DNA of 63,072 nt, counting the filler, from Reclinomonas americana ATCC 50394 (Eukaryota), in NCBI GenBank assembly GCA_048213135.1. It is 3 parts of 2 records of this genome, joined end to end, with 100 filler letters (N's around TTAATTAATTAA, not from the genome) between each part and the next. Parts side by side here need not be neighbours in the genome. Positions count along the whole stretch, not along the records: positions 21,170 to 52,560 come from PS015107.1; 2 more parts are not named here. One strand, written 5' to 3'. The position numbers and the translations under genes are program-made. This document shows positions 30,721 to 48,160 of the stretch, piece after piece (position 1 is the first letter of the stretch; every line of letters starts with the position of its first letter). The notes under the pieces were generated by a model. That model was not told the origin of the DNA, ran no database searches, and saw only the letters and a list, made by a program, of their open reading frames with translations.

Positions 30721-33700
30721 ATGTCTGTGAGTTTGATTGTGTGGGGGACGCTTGTTGTTCGCACGCTTCTCTCTGTCTCTCATTCATCGCTTGTCGCTCG
30801 CTGTCCTTGTTTGTGCACAGTTTTCCGTGCATGTTAGTGCAGCGCATGATTCATCGCTGTCGGTGGTGGTGGAAGGAATGACGGGCACGACGACTCTCGC
30901 AGAGTTGCTTCGCGAGGCCACTCGCTTGCTGCGTGTAAAGAGTGGAGATGTGGAGTTGGATATTGTGGGGGTGGAGAAGCCAGTGGAGTACGACTTGGAG
31001 GATGCGAGTGTGCTGAAGCTGAAATCTCTGAGAATCAAACCGAACACGGATGTTGTTGTCAGCATGATGACAAGCGCAGCTCCGCTGGAAGGGAGGTGCA
31101 TGTGTGTGCGTGCGCGTGTGTGTGTGAGAGAGAGAGAGCTTATGTACGTGCTTGTCGCAATTGATTGACTGTTGTGCATGCACGTAGGAAGCGCCCCGCA
31201 GAGGGTTCTGCGCGTGACGCGCCACCTCTCAAGCGACAAAATACACTTGCACATGTGAGTTGCGCCAGTGACGAGCCGGCGTCGGCAACACCAATGGAAG
31301 AGGATGGCGACACCCCAGCGTCGACCACTGGCAGTGCAGCCGCACCGAGCGAGGATTCTTCGTCGTCAGAGGTGGTTCGTGGCGCAGTAGTCATTGATTT
31401 CTGTTCTCATTCTAGTGCGTGCTTCATGTCTTGTTGCACGCGTCCACTGCGCTCGTACGTCGTGTGAGTGTCTTTGTCACGCCTTCTTGATCGTCTGATT
31501 GAGAAAGCGCCTCTTTCTTTGTGTGGCATTTCCGCCAAGGTTGCCTACCATGCTGCAGTGTTGTTGCTCACTCGTGTACTCTCGCACACATAGTTTGCTG
31601 TGGAGGTCAGCGCTGGCGTTTCAACCGTGGGTCATTCCGTATCCGTGCTCGTAAGCGAACTTCGCTCGACCAGCACCGTCGGCACCTTGCTCGACCGTGC
31701 CCTTGTGGCTTTGCGGAGCCTGACGCACTGTGACAAACTGAAGATTATCGAGGTATTGCCACCGCTGAAGCTCCCGCTTGGAAAAAAGAAGAAAGCATCC
31801 ACTCGCCGAACGCAACTCGCTGCCGCGGGGATTATTGCAAACACGATAGTGATGGTGGTGGTCAAAGGGTTCGTACGCACGTGCATAAGCCATTGTGCTT
31901 CCTGTGATTTTACCTCTCTGACGCCGCGAGTAGGGTCACTGCAGAATCGCTGTCTCCGCCGCCTTCGGAGCCGATGCCAACAGAACCAGAGGGAGAGGCA
32001 TCCGGATCTGGACTGTCTGCGGAGCGGCGGTCAGTTTTCTATCTTCCCCTGCCAGCGTGTCACCGCACTGACACCCGACTGCAGGGTTATCAATTTCAAC
32101 CGCATGTACGCAGCCTGTGAGGTGGTGGAGGAGGCCGTGCGTCTTCGCTGTCAACGCGCTCTGGCGCAGTTCAGTCGCGATCATCCAGCCTTTGATGTGC
32201 GGGCGTGGGTACCGAGTTTCAAGCCCGTTGGCATGGATGCGGCAGCTGTAGAGGAGTGGCGTGCACGGCATGCTCCACTCCACCCTTCTCGAGTCAAGAT
32301 ATTCGAGGAAAAACGCCGGGCGATGTTGAAATGGCGGCGCGCTTTCGACGCGGACCCCTCATCTGACCCTTCTTGTGACGGATTCGACACAACGGCACTC
32401 CATTCAATAATGATGTATGGTGGCTTTGTCGAAGATGACGGTCGCAAGCTGCTGCTGATTGACAATGCTGACGAGCGGAAGGCCGTGGAGGAGCTGCGTG
32501 ACGTAAGAAATGAGATGGCGCACAAGGACTTCGCGTTGACCGACATCATTGTACAACGATACCTTGCTATAGACGGTGTCTTACTCGCCACTCTCTCTCG
32601 ATTGCAGTTGACGGCTGACGAGCGTGCTCGATTCTCCGCTCGTGTTTGCGATGCTAGTCTTGTAGACGTTTATATCAGTACATATTCAGTGCGACTTCAG
32701 CGACTGGCTGTGCGCGAGCTCTCATTCTACCAGCACGAAGAGAGTGTGCGCAAGGACTTGCAGATGTATGTGCCACTGCTGTGCTCTCGTGAGCGTGACG
32801 TCTCGTCGAGAGACAAGATGACGGATCTACTGACGGAGGTGGATGTTTTCCTCGCCGACACCAACACCGCCGATCGTGTGTTGGTGCTCTTTGGTAACAG
32901 TGGAGCAGGCAAGACCACCACCATGTCGGTGCTGGCCGAGAGAGCATGGCGGCAGTGGCAGACGAGAGAGAACAGACGAGTGCCTGTGCGTGTGCCTCTT
33001 GGTGCACTGCGCAATGCCGATGGGCGCCTGTTGGAGGAGGCATTGGAGCGACTGTCCCCCGAGTTGGGACTGGAGTCGGATGTGCGACGGCTGAAAGAAG
33101 AGCCACTGCTTTTGTTACTTGACGGGTATGACGAGTTGTACCGAGGTGTGAATCTGTTTGTCAAGAATCAGCTGGATGTGTGTCGCGATGTTAAGGTGAT
33201 TATCACCTGTCGTGGCGATTATGCACTCACGGCATTGGGTGGCGTGACGCAGTATCGACGGTATTTTGCACCGGTGGATGCGCGGGGACAGCTGTGCATG
33301 CAGTGGTTGACGGAGCGACACCTAGCACCATTCAACAGGGAGCAGATTGAGGAGTACATTGAGCGACTGGTACAAGTGGGTGGTAATGTCGATGGCGGTG
33401 AGGTGCGATGGTCGACTGCCGAGGAGTACATTCGTGCATTGAAGAGTGTACACGGACTGGACGCACTGGTGTCGAATCCGTTCCTGCTGACAGTGGTGGC
33501 TCGTGTGTTGCCACAGTTGGTGGCGAGTGGTGTGCAGCGGCCGACTCGGTGCGATGTGTTTGACCGATTCACTCGACAGTGGATTGTGAGAGAGCAGGAG
33601 AGACAAGCGAAACTCGGTGCGGAGCGTGTACCGGGTGAGGAGACATGTCTCTCATTCTGTGAGGGACTGGCACGGTTGATGCATGAGAAGAATGTGGTGC

Positions 33701-36210
33701 GTGCGTCTGTGACGGAGAGTCTGTCAGGTGGTGTAGAGGAGGATGACTTTGGTGGTGCGCCAATCGCCTTGCGACGAGTGGAGAAGGGACCGTTTGACAA
33801 GCTCCTCGGCCACAAGAACCAGCATGTGCGAGTGTGCTGTCCGATTGTGCGACGGTATGGGACGACGCAGTGGGGATTCGTGCATCTGTCGTTACTGGAG
33901 CACTGTGTGGCACGACATGTATTTGCATGGGAGACGTGGGACGAGGAGAGGAAATTGACGATGCAAGACGTGCAAAAGCATGTGCTGGGAGTGCGATTGT
34001 TGAACGACAGACCATCGTTGGTGGAACAGATGGCCGAGGTGGTGCGACGGTCTCCCAAGTTGCAAGCGAGACTCTGGGAGGTGATTTATTTGTCACGGGA
34101 GGTGGATGAGGAGCGATTGGTGACGGCCGCCGCGAATGCAGCGACAGTGTTGTGTGTGGCACAAGTGTCGTTCAGTGGGCGAGATCTGTCGGGAGTGCGA
34201 GTGAGGGGTGCGGATTTAAGGGATGCGGTGATGCACAGGACGGTGTGGAGGGGAGCGGATTTGCGAGGGGTGAATGTGTGCATGGCGTATGCGAGGGAGG
34301 CGGATTTCAGAGGGGCGAATATCACTGGTGTTGTGTGGCCGAGAACGCCAATGAAAGGGCATACAGGCACTGTTCGATGTGTTGCAGTTTCATCTTGTGG
34401 ACAACAAATTGCCGGTGGTTCCACAAACGGAGTGTTGGAGATGTGGCCGATAGCTGGCGAAGGAGGTTTTCGCATCACTGCGTTTTCGTCTGCCGTCGAG
34501 TCCGTTGCAATTTCTCCTGACAGCAAATATGTCGTTGGAGGGGCCGCGGATGGTTCTGTTTGTATCTGGTCAGTGGCCTCGAATCTTGAAACATGTGTGC
34601 AGCAATCGGTTGATTCAAATGCACCCGTAATGTCGATTGCAGTAACTCGTGACGGTTTGTTCGTCGTGTGTGGCATCGACGACAGTACTGTGCGCGTGTT
34701 TACGCTTATGGATGGCACCGAGCAGTGGTGTTTTTGTGACCATCTCAGTGGTGTGCTGGCTGTGACATCCACTTACGACAGCACATTGGCGGTAAGTGGC
34801 AGTCGTGACAAGACAGTTCGAGTGTGGTCGCTGATTACTGGAGCAAGAATGCGGTGTGTTTCTGGTCATGAGGGCCCGATTCGATCTGTTGCAACAGCCG
34901 CCGATGATCGTTGGATTGTCAGCAGCAGTGATGACGGCACGGTACGCACGTGGTCTCTCACTAGTGGAGAGCAGTTGCGACTCTTCAAGTTTGACACGAA
35001 GCAAAATGTGAGGTCCACCGTCGCCGTGTTGTCTGACGGCAACCACATTGCATGTGGGTGGTTTGATCACTCTGTGCGAGTGTTTTCTCTCATTTCGAGT
35101 TGTGAGGTCTTCCGATTTGACGGACACCTGGATGAAGTGTGTGCTGTATCAGCTGCGCCTAACGGACTGATTGCCAGCTGCAGTCATGACCAGACAATTC
35201 GTCTTTGGTCTATTAACGACCATGAACATGCGCGACGACTCGGTGGACATGGGACTGGAGTTCGATGCGTTGCATGCGGAATGACCCCTTTCGGGGCGCT
35301 TGCTGTCACCGGTGGCAACAATTCATATCTCCGGGTTTGGCTGATTGACACTGGCGAGGAACTGAATGCTTATCATGGGCACTCGGATTCCGTAAATGCT
35401 GTGGCATTCGTTGTTGTGAACGACGAGGTTCGATGTGTGAGCTGTGGAGATGATTGGACACTGTGGTCTCCAACTGATGCCTCGATATTATGGAAAAACT
35501 ATAGTCATCACGGCGAGGTGACAGCGCTGGCGGTTACCCCAGGTGGTTGTCATGTTTACAGCAGTTGTCGGGACGGACTTGTGCGTTTGCTGTCGCTGGA
35601 GAACGGCGATGTTGTTAGCAAGCTGGAAGGGCATTGCGGAGCCGTTGACGTGGTGGCAGTGAGCGCTGACGGGCAATTTGTAGTTTCCGGCGGCGTGGAT
35701 CGGGCGGTGCGTGTGTGGCGATGTGACTCTGGGGATGAGGTGCATCAACTTGTTGGCCACACTGCAAGAGTCACATGTGTGACGATTTCGAGTGATTGCC
35801 AGCATGTGGTCAGTGGCGCACGAGACAATACTGTGCGTGTGTGGTCTGTAACGAGTGGCAAACAAATTCGTCTGTTCAATGGGCACACAGCCACAGTTAT
35901 AGCTTTGTCGATATCCACAGATGACCTTCATGTTGTTAGTCGCGATACTACCGGTGTGGTGAATCGGTGGGGACTGCATAAGGGAAAGAAAGCTGCGGGC
36001 CACCCCGGTGATGAGATTTTTGCAAATTGTATCTGTGCTCTCGAGGCATCAGATCTTGTCCTTGGCATTACTTTCAGCAGGCAGGTCGTGGTTGTGAAAT
36101 CAACAACCGGATTCGTTGATCGAGTGCTGGGGTCTGTGTTTCCAGATATTATGAAGACCCAAATGTCCAATCTTGCATGGCCACGAGCACACATCATGGC
36201 CACAGACTGA
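30721..36210 (+). CDS. NLR-like STAND protein, copy 1: two ubiquitin-like domains, HEPN-like, NACHT, pentapeptide, about 13 WD40
   Basis: Start ATGTCT|gtgagt. FDTTAL...VEELRDVRNEMAH; Walker A GNSGAGKTT; Walker B LLLLDGYDE; VIITCR; NPFLL; FVHLSLLEH; GADLRDAVM...GADLRG; GH...W repeats. Confidence 0.88.
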
Positions 36211-47800: not shown

Positions 47801-48160
47801 TTGCGACTGGCAGTGAGGACAAGACTGTACGTGTGTGGTCGGTGGCAAGTGGTGAGGAGGTGCGCCGACTTGAAGGCCACGCGAGTGGGGTGCATGCAGT
47901 GGCAGTGACACCCGATGGGCAGCACATTGCGACTGGCAGTGAGGACAAGACTGTACGGGCGTGGTCGCTGGCAAGTGGTGAGGAGGTGCGCCGACTTGAA
48001 GGCCACACGGGTGGAGTGGGTGCAGTGGCAGTGACACCCGATGGCCAGCACATTGTGAGTGGTGGTGATGACAAGACTGTACGCCCGTAGCGTGTCAAGT
48101 GGCGAGGAGGTGTGCCGACTGGAAGGCCACACGAGTGCGGTAAATGCAGTGGCTGTGACA
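44890..48160 (+). pseudogene. NLR-like STAND protein, copy 3: nonsense codon in the pentapeptide region and a collapsed WD40 array
   Basis: VEQLREVRNELAH; GNSASGKTT. TGA at 47590-47592 where paralogs have CGA. Only about 3 WD40 units follow, then a stop at 48090 and a frameshifted remnant. Confidence 0.82.

Follow-up and report, generated by a model that had tools for sequence, protein, structure and literature searches.

HEPN domains placed before a NACHT or related NTPase have been described in animals and bacteria. According to passages of PMC9646362 and PMC3710099, bivalves encode DZIP3/hRUL138-like HEPN-NACHT proteins with LRR, TPR or WD40 repeats, and cnidarians and cephalochordates encode CXorf38-type (Swt1-like) HEPN-NACHT proteins; the same passages propose an RNase effector role for these animal proteins and place their genes in tandem, copy-number-variable arrays. 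For bacteria, parts of PMC3710099 describe HEPN domains N-terminal to NTPases as well as HEPN-STAND proteins.

Here, we analyzed a stretch of 63,072 nucleotides, filler included (the window), from Reclinomonas americana ATCC 50394 (GCA_048213135.1), in which three intron-bearing eukaryotic genes, coding for NLR-like STAND proteins, form a segmentally duplicated tandem array. As in the animal proteins of those passages, a predicted N-terminal HEPN with an Rx4H motif (Asn after Arg) is followed by a NACHT in the middle and by repeats, WD40 among them, at the C-terminus, and the genes lie in tandem. In contrast to them, the N-terminal domain scores below threshold with Pfam HEPN_Swt1, has no Pfam match to HEPN_DZIP3 and has no detectable sequence relative; the locus adds pentapeptide repeats and one or more N-terminal Ubl-like modules; and the NACHT core is nearest, among the matches listed, to proteins of early-diverging fungi and not to animal ones. 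The first-pass annotation knew of no description of this full architecture, which was overstated, because these passages already report NACHT or STAND proteins with a HEPN at the N-terminus from bivalves, cnidarians, cephalochordates and bacteria; they also bear out its placing of DZIP3/Swt1-type HEPN domains before animal NACHTs. Thus, the arrangement is a known one, found here in a new form.

Other systems resemble the locus in part. Bacterial Swt1-like (Ava_2192-type) HEPN proteins give the best profile match to the N-terminal domain, but in them the domain is linked to an AAA+ ATPase (DUF499) or occurs by itself, is not joined to NACHT-WD40, and shares only 13-25% identity with the window domain. 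The fungal incompatibility NLRs HET-E/HNWD, and Apaf-1, also place two WD40 propellers, which serve as the sensor and vary on the top face, after a NACHT or NB-ARC, although their effector is a HET or CARD and not a HEPN, and they lack pentapeptide repeats; a section of PMC7159879 summarises the oligomerisation-driven activation of HET-E/HNWD-type NLRs and Apaf-1. RNase L/Ire1 KEN, Csm6 and Cas13, HEPN RNases that induced dimerisation or oligomerisation switches on, share the Rx4-6H catalytic motif but carry other regulatory modules (kinase or ankyrin, CARF, crRNA), and PADLOC and PDB searches gave no similarity to them beyond the motif helix (PADLOC CARF_HEPN at E 0.0059, marginal PDB rows at E 0.64-0.79).

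The gene array and the integrity of its copies

Three neighbouring paralogs, A (30721-36210), B (39225-43892) and C (44890-48160), one of them broken, share the order of a probably helical N-terminal domain (N-domain), NACHT, pentapeptide repeats and an array of 42-residue WD40 repeats (Table 1). A tblastn search with the B N-domain found exactly three copies in the whole window (100, 70.6 and 66.3% identity), and direct-repeat families with spacings of around 7.7 and 5.7 kb are found at the array, in agreement with the three paralogs first annotated. A duplicated Methyltransf_28 fragment, whose parent ORF has a Pfam PF02636 match, marks where the second duplication unit ends on its upstream side. 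Pfam matches were obtained for 12 of the 133 flanking ORFs, none of them defence-related; the neighbours of the array are ordinary housekeeping genes, and it does not lie in a defence island.

Table 1. Features of the array, in window coordinates
Feature	Position	Strand	Basis or remark
A exon 1, ATG TCT, then GTGAGT 5′ splice site	30721..30726	+	open spliced frame
A exon 2 (275 nt, ending in phase 2), first Ubl-like module	30821..31095	+	alignment and gene model
A exon 3, acidic Ser-rich linker, A only	31188..31371	+	open spliced frame
A exon 4, Ubl-like module 2, duplicated exon	31594..31868	+	alignment and gene model
A last exon: HEPN-like, NACHT, pentapeptide, diverged WD40 array	32085..36210	+	stop 36208-36210
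A HEPN-like domain	32113..32724	+	FDTTAL 32383-32400; RNEMAH 32506-32523
A NACHT NTPase	32875..33363	+	PF05729; Walker A 32893-32919, Walker B 33106-33135
A pentapeptide repeats	34168..34340	+	PF00805, 31.2 bits (cut-off 20.2)
A-associated second WD40 ORF, 14 regular 42-aa repeats	36173..38059	+	first ATG 36260
Duplicated Methyltransf_28 (NDUFAF7-like) 3′ fragment	38392..38935	+	96.6-98% identity to 29915-30387
B exon 1, ATG TCG, then GTGAGT	39225..39230	+	gene model
B exon 2, Ubl-like module	39329..39627	+	alignment and gene model
B last exon: HEPN-like, NACHT, pentapeptide, 14 WD40 repeats	39806..43892	+	Pfam and gene model
B HEPN-like domain	39831..40445	+	FDTTAL 40104-40121; RNKLRH 40227-40244
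B NACHT	40596..41087	+	PF05729; Walker A 40614-40640, Walker B 40827-40856
B FVHLS, downstream of the NACHT match	41607-41621	+	motif read
B pentapeptide repeats	41898..42080	+	PF00805, 35.2 bits (cut-off 20.2)
B WD40 array, fourteen 42-aa repeats	42084..43892	+	repeat matches
C exon 1 (44890-44898), intron 1, exon 2 (44994-45292, Ubl-like)	44890..45292	+	gene model
C last exon to premature stop: HEPN-like, NACHT, pentapeptide start	45486..47592	+	TGA 47590-47592 (CGA in B)
C HEPN-like domain motifs	FDTTAL 45784-45801; RNELAH 45904-45921	+	within last exon
C NACHT Walker A, GNSASGKTT	46291-46317	+	motif read
C remnant: rest of pentapeptide, ~3 WD40 repeats, decayed repeat	47593..48160	+	frameshift near 48085

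All eight introns predicted in A, B and C have GT..AG borders, measure 92-222 nt and keep the frame, giving predicted spliced ORFs of 1621 aa for A and 1463 aa for B. The ATG mini-exon of A and its splice site are conserved also in B and C, and the gene model accounts for two positions given at the outset, 30721 as the ATG of this mini-exon and 32085 as an exon start. GT..AG introns, one of 92 and one of 222 nt, lie on either side of the linker exon found only in A, and exon 4 has the length and phase of exon 2, with 30% identity to the B module. Exon 2 is 89.3% identical between B and C, with no gaps, while the introns on either side contain indels of lengths not divisible by three.

Judging from these reading frames, B looks intact and would be the most intact of the three, and A is predicted to be intact as far as its WD40 array, which is split over two frames: the second WD40 ORF is out of frame with the stop of gene A, and could stem from a frameshift or from an error in the assembly, or be an ORF of its own. 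Copy C is likely a pseudogene: it is interrupted by a nonsense codon and a frameshift, and its WD40 array is cut short. Of the NLR genes first proposed, the three paralogs stand, but C is broken and A ends at its stop codon, ahead of most of the second ORF.

The NACHT, pentapeptide and WD40 regions

PF05729 exceeded its cut-off of 26.7 bits in all three copies (35.0 in A, 37.6 in B and 31.5 in C). Walker A reads GNSGAGKTT in A and B and GNSASGKTT in C, and Walker B (LLLLLDGYDE) and the FVHLS of the winged-helix region are present in every copy, as the first reading of Walker A, Walker B and a winged-helix FxH had it. PF00805 was scored in A and B and matched both, and stretches matched to WD40 number 14 in B, 7 and 14 in the first and second ORFs of A, and 3 in the C remnant, so that the proposed succession of NACHT, pentapeptide and WD40 parts is confirmed. 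The fourteen repeats of B would be enough for two seven-bladed propellers.

Among the matches listed, the closest relatives of this core are Mortierellomycotina NACHT-pentapeptide-WD40 proteins (Linnemannia, Mortierella, Entomortierella and others), at around 28% identity; such proteins are abundant in this group. There are 178 matches at E <= 0.001 (best E 3e-56), and the best 120 of the 178 show 25-31% identity over 85-99% of the 536-residue query, but for one row at 53%. These proteins match the locus in their core of NACHT, pentapeptide (PF00805) and WD40 parts, but at the N-terminus they have either PF23948 (Arm-like repeat) or no named domain, with no HEPN accession among the Pfam matches listed for them; the term HEPN has 0 occurrences in the main text of two fungal NLR surveys.

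Between WD40 repeats, DNA identity is 63-71% (300-nt, multi-repeat spans), and it is higher than this in the Podospora HNWD repeats. Variability over 26 repeats is highest at positions 6 (3.47 bits), 8 (3.15) and 24 (3.41), which under the rules set out in part of PMC3419727 are R1-2, R1 and D-1, the top-face contacts.

Proposed activation and possible roles

As an explanation of the whole locus, we favor, with moderate confidence, an NLR-like STAND array whose proteins carry a divergent Swt1-like HEPN head and would act as ligand-triggered RNases. The predicted architecture comprises one or two small N-terminal modules, a HEPN, a NACHT with its winged-helix region, a short pentapeptide beta-helix and fourteen WD40 repeats. 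The WD40 propellers would use their variable top-face positions to bind a ligand, and this binding would release the NACHT for nucleotide-dependent oligomerisation; this, in turn, would juxtapose the N-terminal HEPN domains as a dimer with a composite active site. HEPN RNase activity requires two such juxtaposed domains. The ensuing RNA cleavage might arrest or kill the cell, or destroy the RNA of an invader. For every one of these steps, we reason from the analogy of Apaf-1, NLRs, bacterial Avs/bNACHT and HEPN enzymes.

The proteins might instead serve allorecognition or self/non-self incompatibility, as HET-E/HNWD do, or be a housekeeping scaffold, and not sense pathogens at all. Fungal incompatibility NLRs also combine NACHT-WD40 with variability focused on top-face repeat positions, and the ordinary genes around the array would suit such roles. 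Nevertheless, we find them unlikely: these proteins contain no HET or other incompatibility domain, and an array formed by tandem duplication, in which one copy has decayed, is in keeping with the birth-and-death evolution of immune-type families. The evidence at this locus would agree with allorecognition as well as with pathogen sensing.

The N-terminal domain

The N-domains of the three copies align over 205 columns with a mean column identity of 82%, and FDTTAL and R133, N134 and H138 of RN-x3-H are invariant in all of them, so the shared domain first noticed before the NACHT is well founded. Its core is under purifying selection (dN/dS 0.21-0.37, against 0.11-0.12 for the NACHT), and has the highest dN of all regions (0.23). 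This high dN would also suit a HEPN-derived domain that is not a nuclease and instead senses RNA by binding it or acts as a homotypic adaptor, the NLR output being something else, as would its weak similarity to active bacterial members outside the two motifs and the view, in a passage of PMC3710099, that the eukaryotic Swt1 HEPN is probably inactive and RNA-sensing. We consider this improbable, however, given that the invariant R, N and H keep the spacing of the bacterial family and that Pfam searches found no other candidate effector domain in the protein.

Pfam HEPN_Swt1 matched the RN-x3-H helix in two of the three paralogs, in A with E 6.7e-4 (20.4 bits; the cut-off is 27.5) and in C with E 0.023, both sub-threshold, and B had no Pfam HEPN match whatsoever. 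No HEPN model reached its curated cut-off with the N-domains of A, B or C, an NCBIfam search of them gave nothing, and two HEPN-containing PADLOC models fell on this helix in one of the three paralogs, both sub-threshold (E 0.0059 for CARF_HEPN, and 0.019). Of the 30 best feature matches in the ESM Atlas, 22 were in sets with HEPN_Swt1 (11), HEPN_DZIP3 (8) or DUF4559 (3), the last of which we take to be the CXorf38 HEPN family.

With hhalign, the three N-domains gave 63% probability (E 6.8e-5) against 24 cyanobacterial HEPN_Swt1 domains, and 85.5% (E 5.7e-6, score 37.1, 59 columns) against 75 bacterial ones from three phyla (family present in 20/201, 35/301 and 20/301 sampled genomes), a figure that is not decisive at the Neff of 1.4 of a profile built from three close paralogs. 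The profile is so narrow because no sequence search found an N-domain homolog, including among 1.84 billion representative proteins. The larger alignment, from query residues 86-153 to template positions 44-105 of 115, joins both motifs, with FDTTAL opposite the family's D-x-x-A-L-L and ERKAVEEL-x3-RN-x3-H opposite E-R-x-x-V-x-E-L-x-x-x-R-N-x-x-A-H. None of 150 column shuffles reached 37.1 (maximum 20.3, mean 12.6, sd 2.4), and the reversed query scored 12.3. The match is confident over a short stretch of 29 to 59 columns, and a forced global alignment had 5.6% probability; MAFFT alone aligned the window domains colinearly with HEPN_Swt1, with D, F, R, N and H in nearly invariant columns. The AlphaFold2 model had a pLDDT of 41.5, and a PDB sequence-profile search found nothing.

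Since HMM, profile-profile and language-model features converge, HEPN_Swt1/DZIP3-type families are supported over an unrelated domain, and the N-domain is probably a very divergent HEPN of Swt1-like type, a sequence-based assignment that is supported but not proven; the original HEPN call finds genuine, though indirect, backing in hhalign, in the ESM Atlas neighbours and in HMM matches that all stay below cut-off. A lineage-specific helical domain, not a HEPN, with RN-x3-H and FDTTAL arising by chance or convergence, would account for these sub-threshold profiles, the missing relatives, the low-confidence model and the indecisive hhalign figure, but is very unlikely given the agreement between methods, the colinearity of two separate motifs at HEPN family spacing and shuffles that never came near the real score.

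N-terminal modules

The one or two modules at the N-terminus of each protein possibly have a ubiquitin-like fold. The "Ubl" of the first-pass annotation is not confirmed: a Pfam search gave no match, the language-model lead toward Ubl was weak, and the AlphaFold2 model was poor and gave no match in Foldseek. In A, B and C, conserved GT..AG introns are predicted to join the module in frame to the rest of the protein.

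Three tandem NLR-like genes

The first-pass annotation described three tandem paralogs, referred to here as copies A, B and C, as an NLR-like array. A tblastn search of the window with the 205 N-terminal residues of B found exactly three copies (100, 70.6 and 66.3% identity), all further matches being at E >= 0.75, and these copies form direct-repeat units on the + strand, from 30.7 to 48.2 kb, of a draft eukaryotic scaffold with 15 N runs. For the NACHT domain we considered the PF05729 cut-off (26.7 bits), a Walker A motif of the form GxxxxGK[ST] and a Walker B motif of the form hhhhDG-x-DE. 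The domain scores 35.0 bits in A, 37.6 in B and 31.5 in C, and Walker A (GNSGAGKTT or GNSASGKTT), Walker B (LLLLLDGYDE) and FVHLS are present in all three, as in a STAND NTPase. Pentapeptide repeats (PF00805) were found above the cut-off of 20.2 bits in B (35.2 bits) and A (31.2 bits), and the WD40 family (PF00400) matched 14 stretches of B (E 2.8e-150), in tandem repeats with a register of 42 residues and the GH and WD-type signatures of beta-propellers. Given the three copies of the N-terminal domain, their invariant motifs and the downstream domains that pass Pfam thresholds, the array had therefore been described correctly at the sequence level. In A and in B, a single uninterrupted exon spans the N-terminal domain, NACHT, pentapeptide repeats and WD40, in that order, so that an N-terminal domain, a central NOD and C-terminal superstructure-forming repeats share one polypeptide, as in NLRs; the N-terminal domain would be the effector of such a protein.

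Features of the array and its surroundings, with positions along the window
Feature	Position	Strand	Remarks
Copy A	30721-36210	+	
Copy B	39225-43892	+	
Copy C	44890-48160	+	
Module exons of gene A	30821-31095 and 31594-31868	+	each 275 nt, equal phase, both start F-[SA]-V-x-V-S-A
Acidic linker exon of gene A	31188-31371		between the two module exons; absent from B and C
Stop codon of copy A	36208-36210		behind the diverged WD40 array
WD40 ORF directly behind the stop of A	~36173-38059 (36155 at widest)		14 more, very regular repeats in another frame; first ATG at 36260
TGA in copy C	47590-47592		CGA at the equivalent site in B
Frameshift in copy C	near 48085		
Sequence between B and C	43893-44540		extended (CT)n/(GA)n microsatellites plus an N run of 408 bases (43999-44406)
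Short-tandem-repeat blocks	48875-49465		two blocks downstream of the decayed copy C; start-to-start spacing mostly 8 nt
Methyltransf_28 (NDUFAF7-like) 3' fragment, duplicated ahead of B	29915-30387 and 38392-38935		96.6-98% identity
Flanking ORF fragments	759-2480, 4619-6107, 11422-14293, 22610-23041, 26771-27601, 59640-61785	minus	P4-type phospholipid ATPase, sodium:solute symporter (SSF), Ras-family GTPase, ribosomal protein S9/S16, class I methyltransferase, tubulin

The N-terminal domain as a probable HEPN domain

The domain that precedes the NACHT (here, the N-domain) aligns over 205 columns among the three copies with a mean column identity of 82%. FDTTAL is invariant, as are the R, N and H of E-x-L-x2-[VI]-R-N-x3-H, and the HEPN signature Rx4-6H, usually R-N-x3-H at a helix start, is intact in every copy (RNEMAH in A, RNKLRH in B and RNELAH in C). 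Pfam placed HEPN_Swt1 (PF18731) on the helix with this motif in A (E 6.7e-4, 20.4 bits) and C (E 0.023, 15.4 bits), with no match in B and none of the three reaching the gathering cut-off of 27.5 bits; on the same helix, two PADLOC models that include HEPN matched C only (CARF_HEPN, E 0.0059, and RTasHEPN, E 0.019). The NCBIfam search with the N-domain gave no match, a PDB sequence-profile search with its alignment returned nothing at E <= 10, and the same search with the combined alignment gave marginal rows only, the best being ribosomal protein S6 (E 0.076).

For profile-profile comparisons, bona fide HEPN_Swt1 domains were taken from genomes sampled in three prokaryotic phyla, in which PF18731 exceeded its cut-off in 20 of 201, 35 of 301 and 20 of 301 genomes. 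Against 24 cyanobacterial domains, hhalign gave the three window domains a probability of 63% (E 6.8e-5, 29 columns), and against 75 bacterial domains the probability was 85.5% (E 5.7e-6, score 37.1, 59 columns). The latter alignment pairs FDTTAL-x-S-I-M with D-x-x-A-L-L-x-x-M of the family, and ERKAVEEL-x3-RN-x3-H with ER-x-LV-x-EL-x3-RN-x-WAH. When the columns of the query were shuffled 150 times, no score reached 37.1 (maximum 20.3, mean 12.6, sd 2.4), and reversal of the query gave 12.3. MAFFT alone aligned the window domains colinearly with 70 bacterial domains, D, F, R, N and H falling where column conservation is 90% or higher. Because a forced global profile alignment gave a probability of only 5.6%, we regard this similarity as moderate, not decisive, support for membership in the Swt1-like HEPN family.

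Embedding searches pointed in a similar direction. Of the 30 feature neighbours ranked highest by the ESM Atlas, 22 belong to sets with HEPN_Swt1 (11), HEPN_DZIP3 (8) or DUF4559 (3), the last of which we take to be the CXorf38 family; the set scores are 0.92 for HEPN_Swt1 and 0.91 for HEPN_DZIP3, with family shares of only 10-20% inside the clusters. As for a DZIP3-type assignment, its sole lead is those 8 of the best 30 hits, in a set with 11% carriers of the DZIP3/hRUL138-like HEPN family (PF18738), and this family itself was absent at E <= 10 from all three paralogs. Sequence relatives were not found: a word-seeded search with residues 1-270 returned none at E <= 0.001, a profile of the three paralogs none at E <= 10, and an exhaustive hmmsearch with the N-domain no hits among 1.84 billion representatives. 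The query profile therefore consists of three close paralogs.

The first-pass annotation had called this domain a HEPN RNase. The motif and the profile-profile similarity, including the 85.5% match to bacterial domains, speak for a HEPN assignment, the missed Pfam cut-off, the empty NCBIfam and PDB searches, the weak global alignment and the lack of sequence relatives speak against it, and the AF2 model, which is all-helical, has a mean pLDDT of 41.5, too low to test the fold. On balance, we consider homology to HEPN likely, and we lean, if only slightly, towards predicting an active RNase; a HEPN effector is probable but unproven.

Gene models and the N-terminal modules

Spliceosomal introns are present in all three genes. 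A conserved 5' mini-exon, made of ATG plus one or two codons and followed by GTGAGT, precedes an exon of 275-299 nt that encodes the small module originally named Ubl, and the intron acceptor behind this exon lies 8-9 codons 5' of the N-domain start (MAFEVV/YAACEVV). All eight introns are GT..AG, measure 92-222 nt and keep the frame when exons are joined by coordinates, the spliced open frames reaching 1621 aa in A and 1463 aa in B. Exon 2 of B aligns to that of C without a gap at 89.3% identity, whereas the two introns contain gap runs of 1-8 nt, most of them not divisible by three, which supports the exon-intron model. According to this in-silico model, the modules would be fused to the rest of the protein. 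Gene A contains a second module that is a duplicated exon, 30% identical to the module of B.

For the module, a ubiquitin-like fold is unproven: no ubiquitin-clan Pfam family matched any of the four modules at E <= 10, and a Foldseek search of the PDB with the low-confidence model gave zero matches at E <= 0.001. In that AF2 model (pLDDT 55.6), a beta-hairpin and a helix are built and nothing more. The ESM Atlas lead is to ubiquitin or Rad60-SLD, with scores of 0.88-0.89 and few shared features; the 136 features shared at 0.89 fall short of the values that the tool gives as a guide. The modules may have a beta-grasp fold. We also considered a Crinkler-type Ubl header, which was rejected for want of Pfam support; no literature joining Crinkler, HEPN and ubiquitin-like was found.

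State and history of the three copies

Copy B looks intact. Copy C has a stop codon, a frameshift and about three WD40 repeats, after which similarity decays, and it is probably a pseudogene. Copy A ends behind a WD40 array of its own that is far more diverged than the 14-repeat ORF directly downstream, and this ORF may be a separate WD40-only gene or else be due to a genuine frameshift or to an assembly error or join. The locus, in which 18 kb hold an intact, a rearranged and a dead copy, is an example of birth-and-death evolution. The gap between B and C could hide more sequence, even a further copy.

Purifying selection is apparent in the pairwise comparisons, with dN/dS values between copies of 0.21-0.28 for residues 1-765, 0.11-0.12 for the NACHT and 0.21-0.37 for the HEPN-like core. 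The core also has the highest dN of the regions (0.23), so that the N-domain, although it is coding sequence under constraint, evolves faster than the other domains. Since dS between copies is about 0.46-0.59, the copies are not young. Despite this, the duplicated Methyltransf_28 fragments are nearly identical, while the NLR bodies adjoining them are only 69-90% identical, at a dS of about 0.48, which suggests recent gene conversion or that the flank was duplicated later, in a staggered manner.

Relatives and comparison with known systems

The NACHT-pentapeptide region (residues 205-740) matched 178 proteins at E <= 0.001, the best at 3e-56. Among the 120 matches listed, identity is 25-31% and 85-99% of the region is covered, save for one row covering 53%. 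Every organism-named row among them is from Mortierellomycotina (Linnemannia, Mortierella, Entomortierella, Haplosporangium, Lobosporangium, Benniella and Gryganskiella), and identity to these proteins is only about 28%. In most of the rows listed, the annotation includes the NACHT, pentapeptide and WD40 families, and PF23948 is a further entry in many of them; the Pfam entries listed for these relatives contain no HEPN accession. A search of genome contigs with the same region gave no prokaryotic relative. The neighbourhood of the array (12 of 133 flanking ORFs have Pfam matches) is made of ordinary nuclear genes and is neither a mobile element nor a defence island.

It had been suggested that the full architecture was undescribed, but as a claim of novelty this goes too far, since animal HEPN-NACHT and bacterial HEPN-STAND proteins are in the literature, so that HEPN-armed NLRs are already established as a concept. 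For instance, PMC3710099 describes animal DZIP3-type HEPN-NACHT fusions, with expansions in Nematostella, oyster and Capsaspora, cnidarian and cephalochordate proteins that join a CXorf38-type Swt1-like HEPN to a NACHT, and HEPN-STAND fusions in bacteria. Likewise, PMC9646362 reports more than 50 pearl-oyster proteins with an N-terminal DZIP3-like HEPN on a NACHT and C-terminal repeats that include WD40, encoded in tandem, copy-variable arrays. In fungi, the main text of two NLR surveys (10.1101/2022.03.16.484565 and PMC12258605) contains 0 occurrences of HEPN. The fungal HET-E/HNWD incompatibility NLRs carry an N-terminal HET domain, whereas Pfam scans of the N-terminal regions of the A-C proteins gave no HET match. 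For pentapeptide repeats between NACHT and WD40, we found no description in the literature, the papers returned being concerned with bacterial systems. What is new is the extreme divergence of the HEPN head and its junction to a NACHT-pentapeptide-WD40 chassis and extra N-terminal modules; the host lineage is probably also new for a HEPN-armed NLR. Overall, this is a real NLR-like array of moderate novelty.

The Swt1-like family, according to PMC3710099, takes in the bacterial Ava_2192 type, in which HEPN is fused to an AAA+ ATPase, and active stand-alone members from Naegleria, dictyostelids and Daphnia. Among the bacterial loci with HEPN_Swt1 domains that we gathered (L081-L156), the open frames fall into three recurring size classes of about 245-300, 390-470 and 1100-1180 aa, and the largest class fits the HEPN-AAA+ (DUF499) Ava_2192 type of that source.

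A joint reading of these comparisons, which we put forward as speculative and rather doubtful, would be that of an independently assembled non-animal NLR. In such an NLR, a fast-evolving orphan HEPN RNase of bacterial Ava_2192/Swt1-type descent, not animal DZIP3, would serve as effector on a NACHT-pentapeptide-WD40 chassis otherwise seen in Mortierellomycotina, and the duplicable Ubl-like header exons would encode a regulatory or removable RNase pro-domain. The array would then represent convergent HEPN-NLR immunity outside Metazoa.

A putative sensor and a possible mechanism

Over 26 WD40 repeats of 42 residues, variability is highest at positions 6, 8 and 24 (3.47, 3.15 and 3.41 bits); of the structural positions, V7 and W31 are invariant and D25 barely varies (0.24 bits). 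By the sequence rules of PMC3419727, the variable positions are R1-2, R1 and D-1, whose residues are described there as the commonest ligand contacts on the top face of the propeller. This variability at top-face contact positions fits a recognition surface under diversification.

HEPN RNases, which are all-alpha up-and-down helical bundles and metal-independent endoribonucleases relying on R and H, work as dimers with a composite active site, and by analogy with them NACHT oligomerisation would juxtapose the HEPN domains and lead to RNA cleavage. The oligomerisation would itself be driven by ligand binding, by analogy with Apaf-1 and NLRs as covered in PMC7159879. The outcome may be abortive or antiviral.

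To our knowledge, there is no published test of the proposal that animal HEPN-NLR proteins are RNase-armed. In PMC3710099 and PMC9646362, these proteins are proposed from sequence, without a test, as RNase-armed immune receptors. A HEPN-NLR outside animals, with few introns, would extend this theme with a version that combines a divergent, motif-intact HEPN head with WD40 variability on known ligand-contact positions, and it would suggest that STAND sensors were joined to HEPN RNases several times over, in bacteria, in animals and in one or more further lineages of eukaryotes. If the HEPN head is an RNase, copy B would be a compact construct for studying oligomerisation-triggered RNase activity.

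When genome contigs were searched with the WD40 region, 91 loci from bacteria and archaea matched; 80 were retained and served solely as entry points to genomes. In one of the loci gathered (L005), from a metagenome-assembled genome of Mycoavidus cysteinexigens, an endosymbiont of Mortierella-type fungi, the WD40 array shares 44% identity with that of B; a fungal NLR survey (10.1101/2022.03.16.484565) discusses whether parts of NLRs may have passed between this bacterium and its host.
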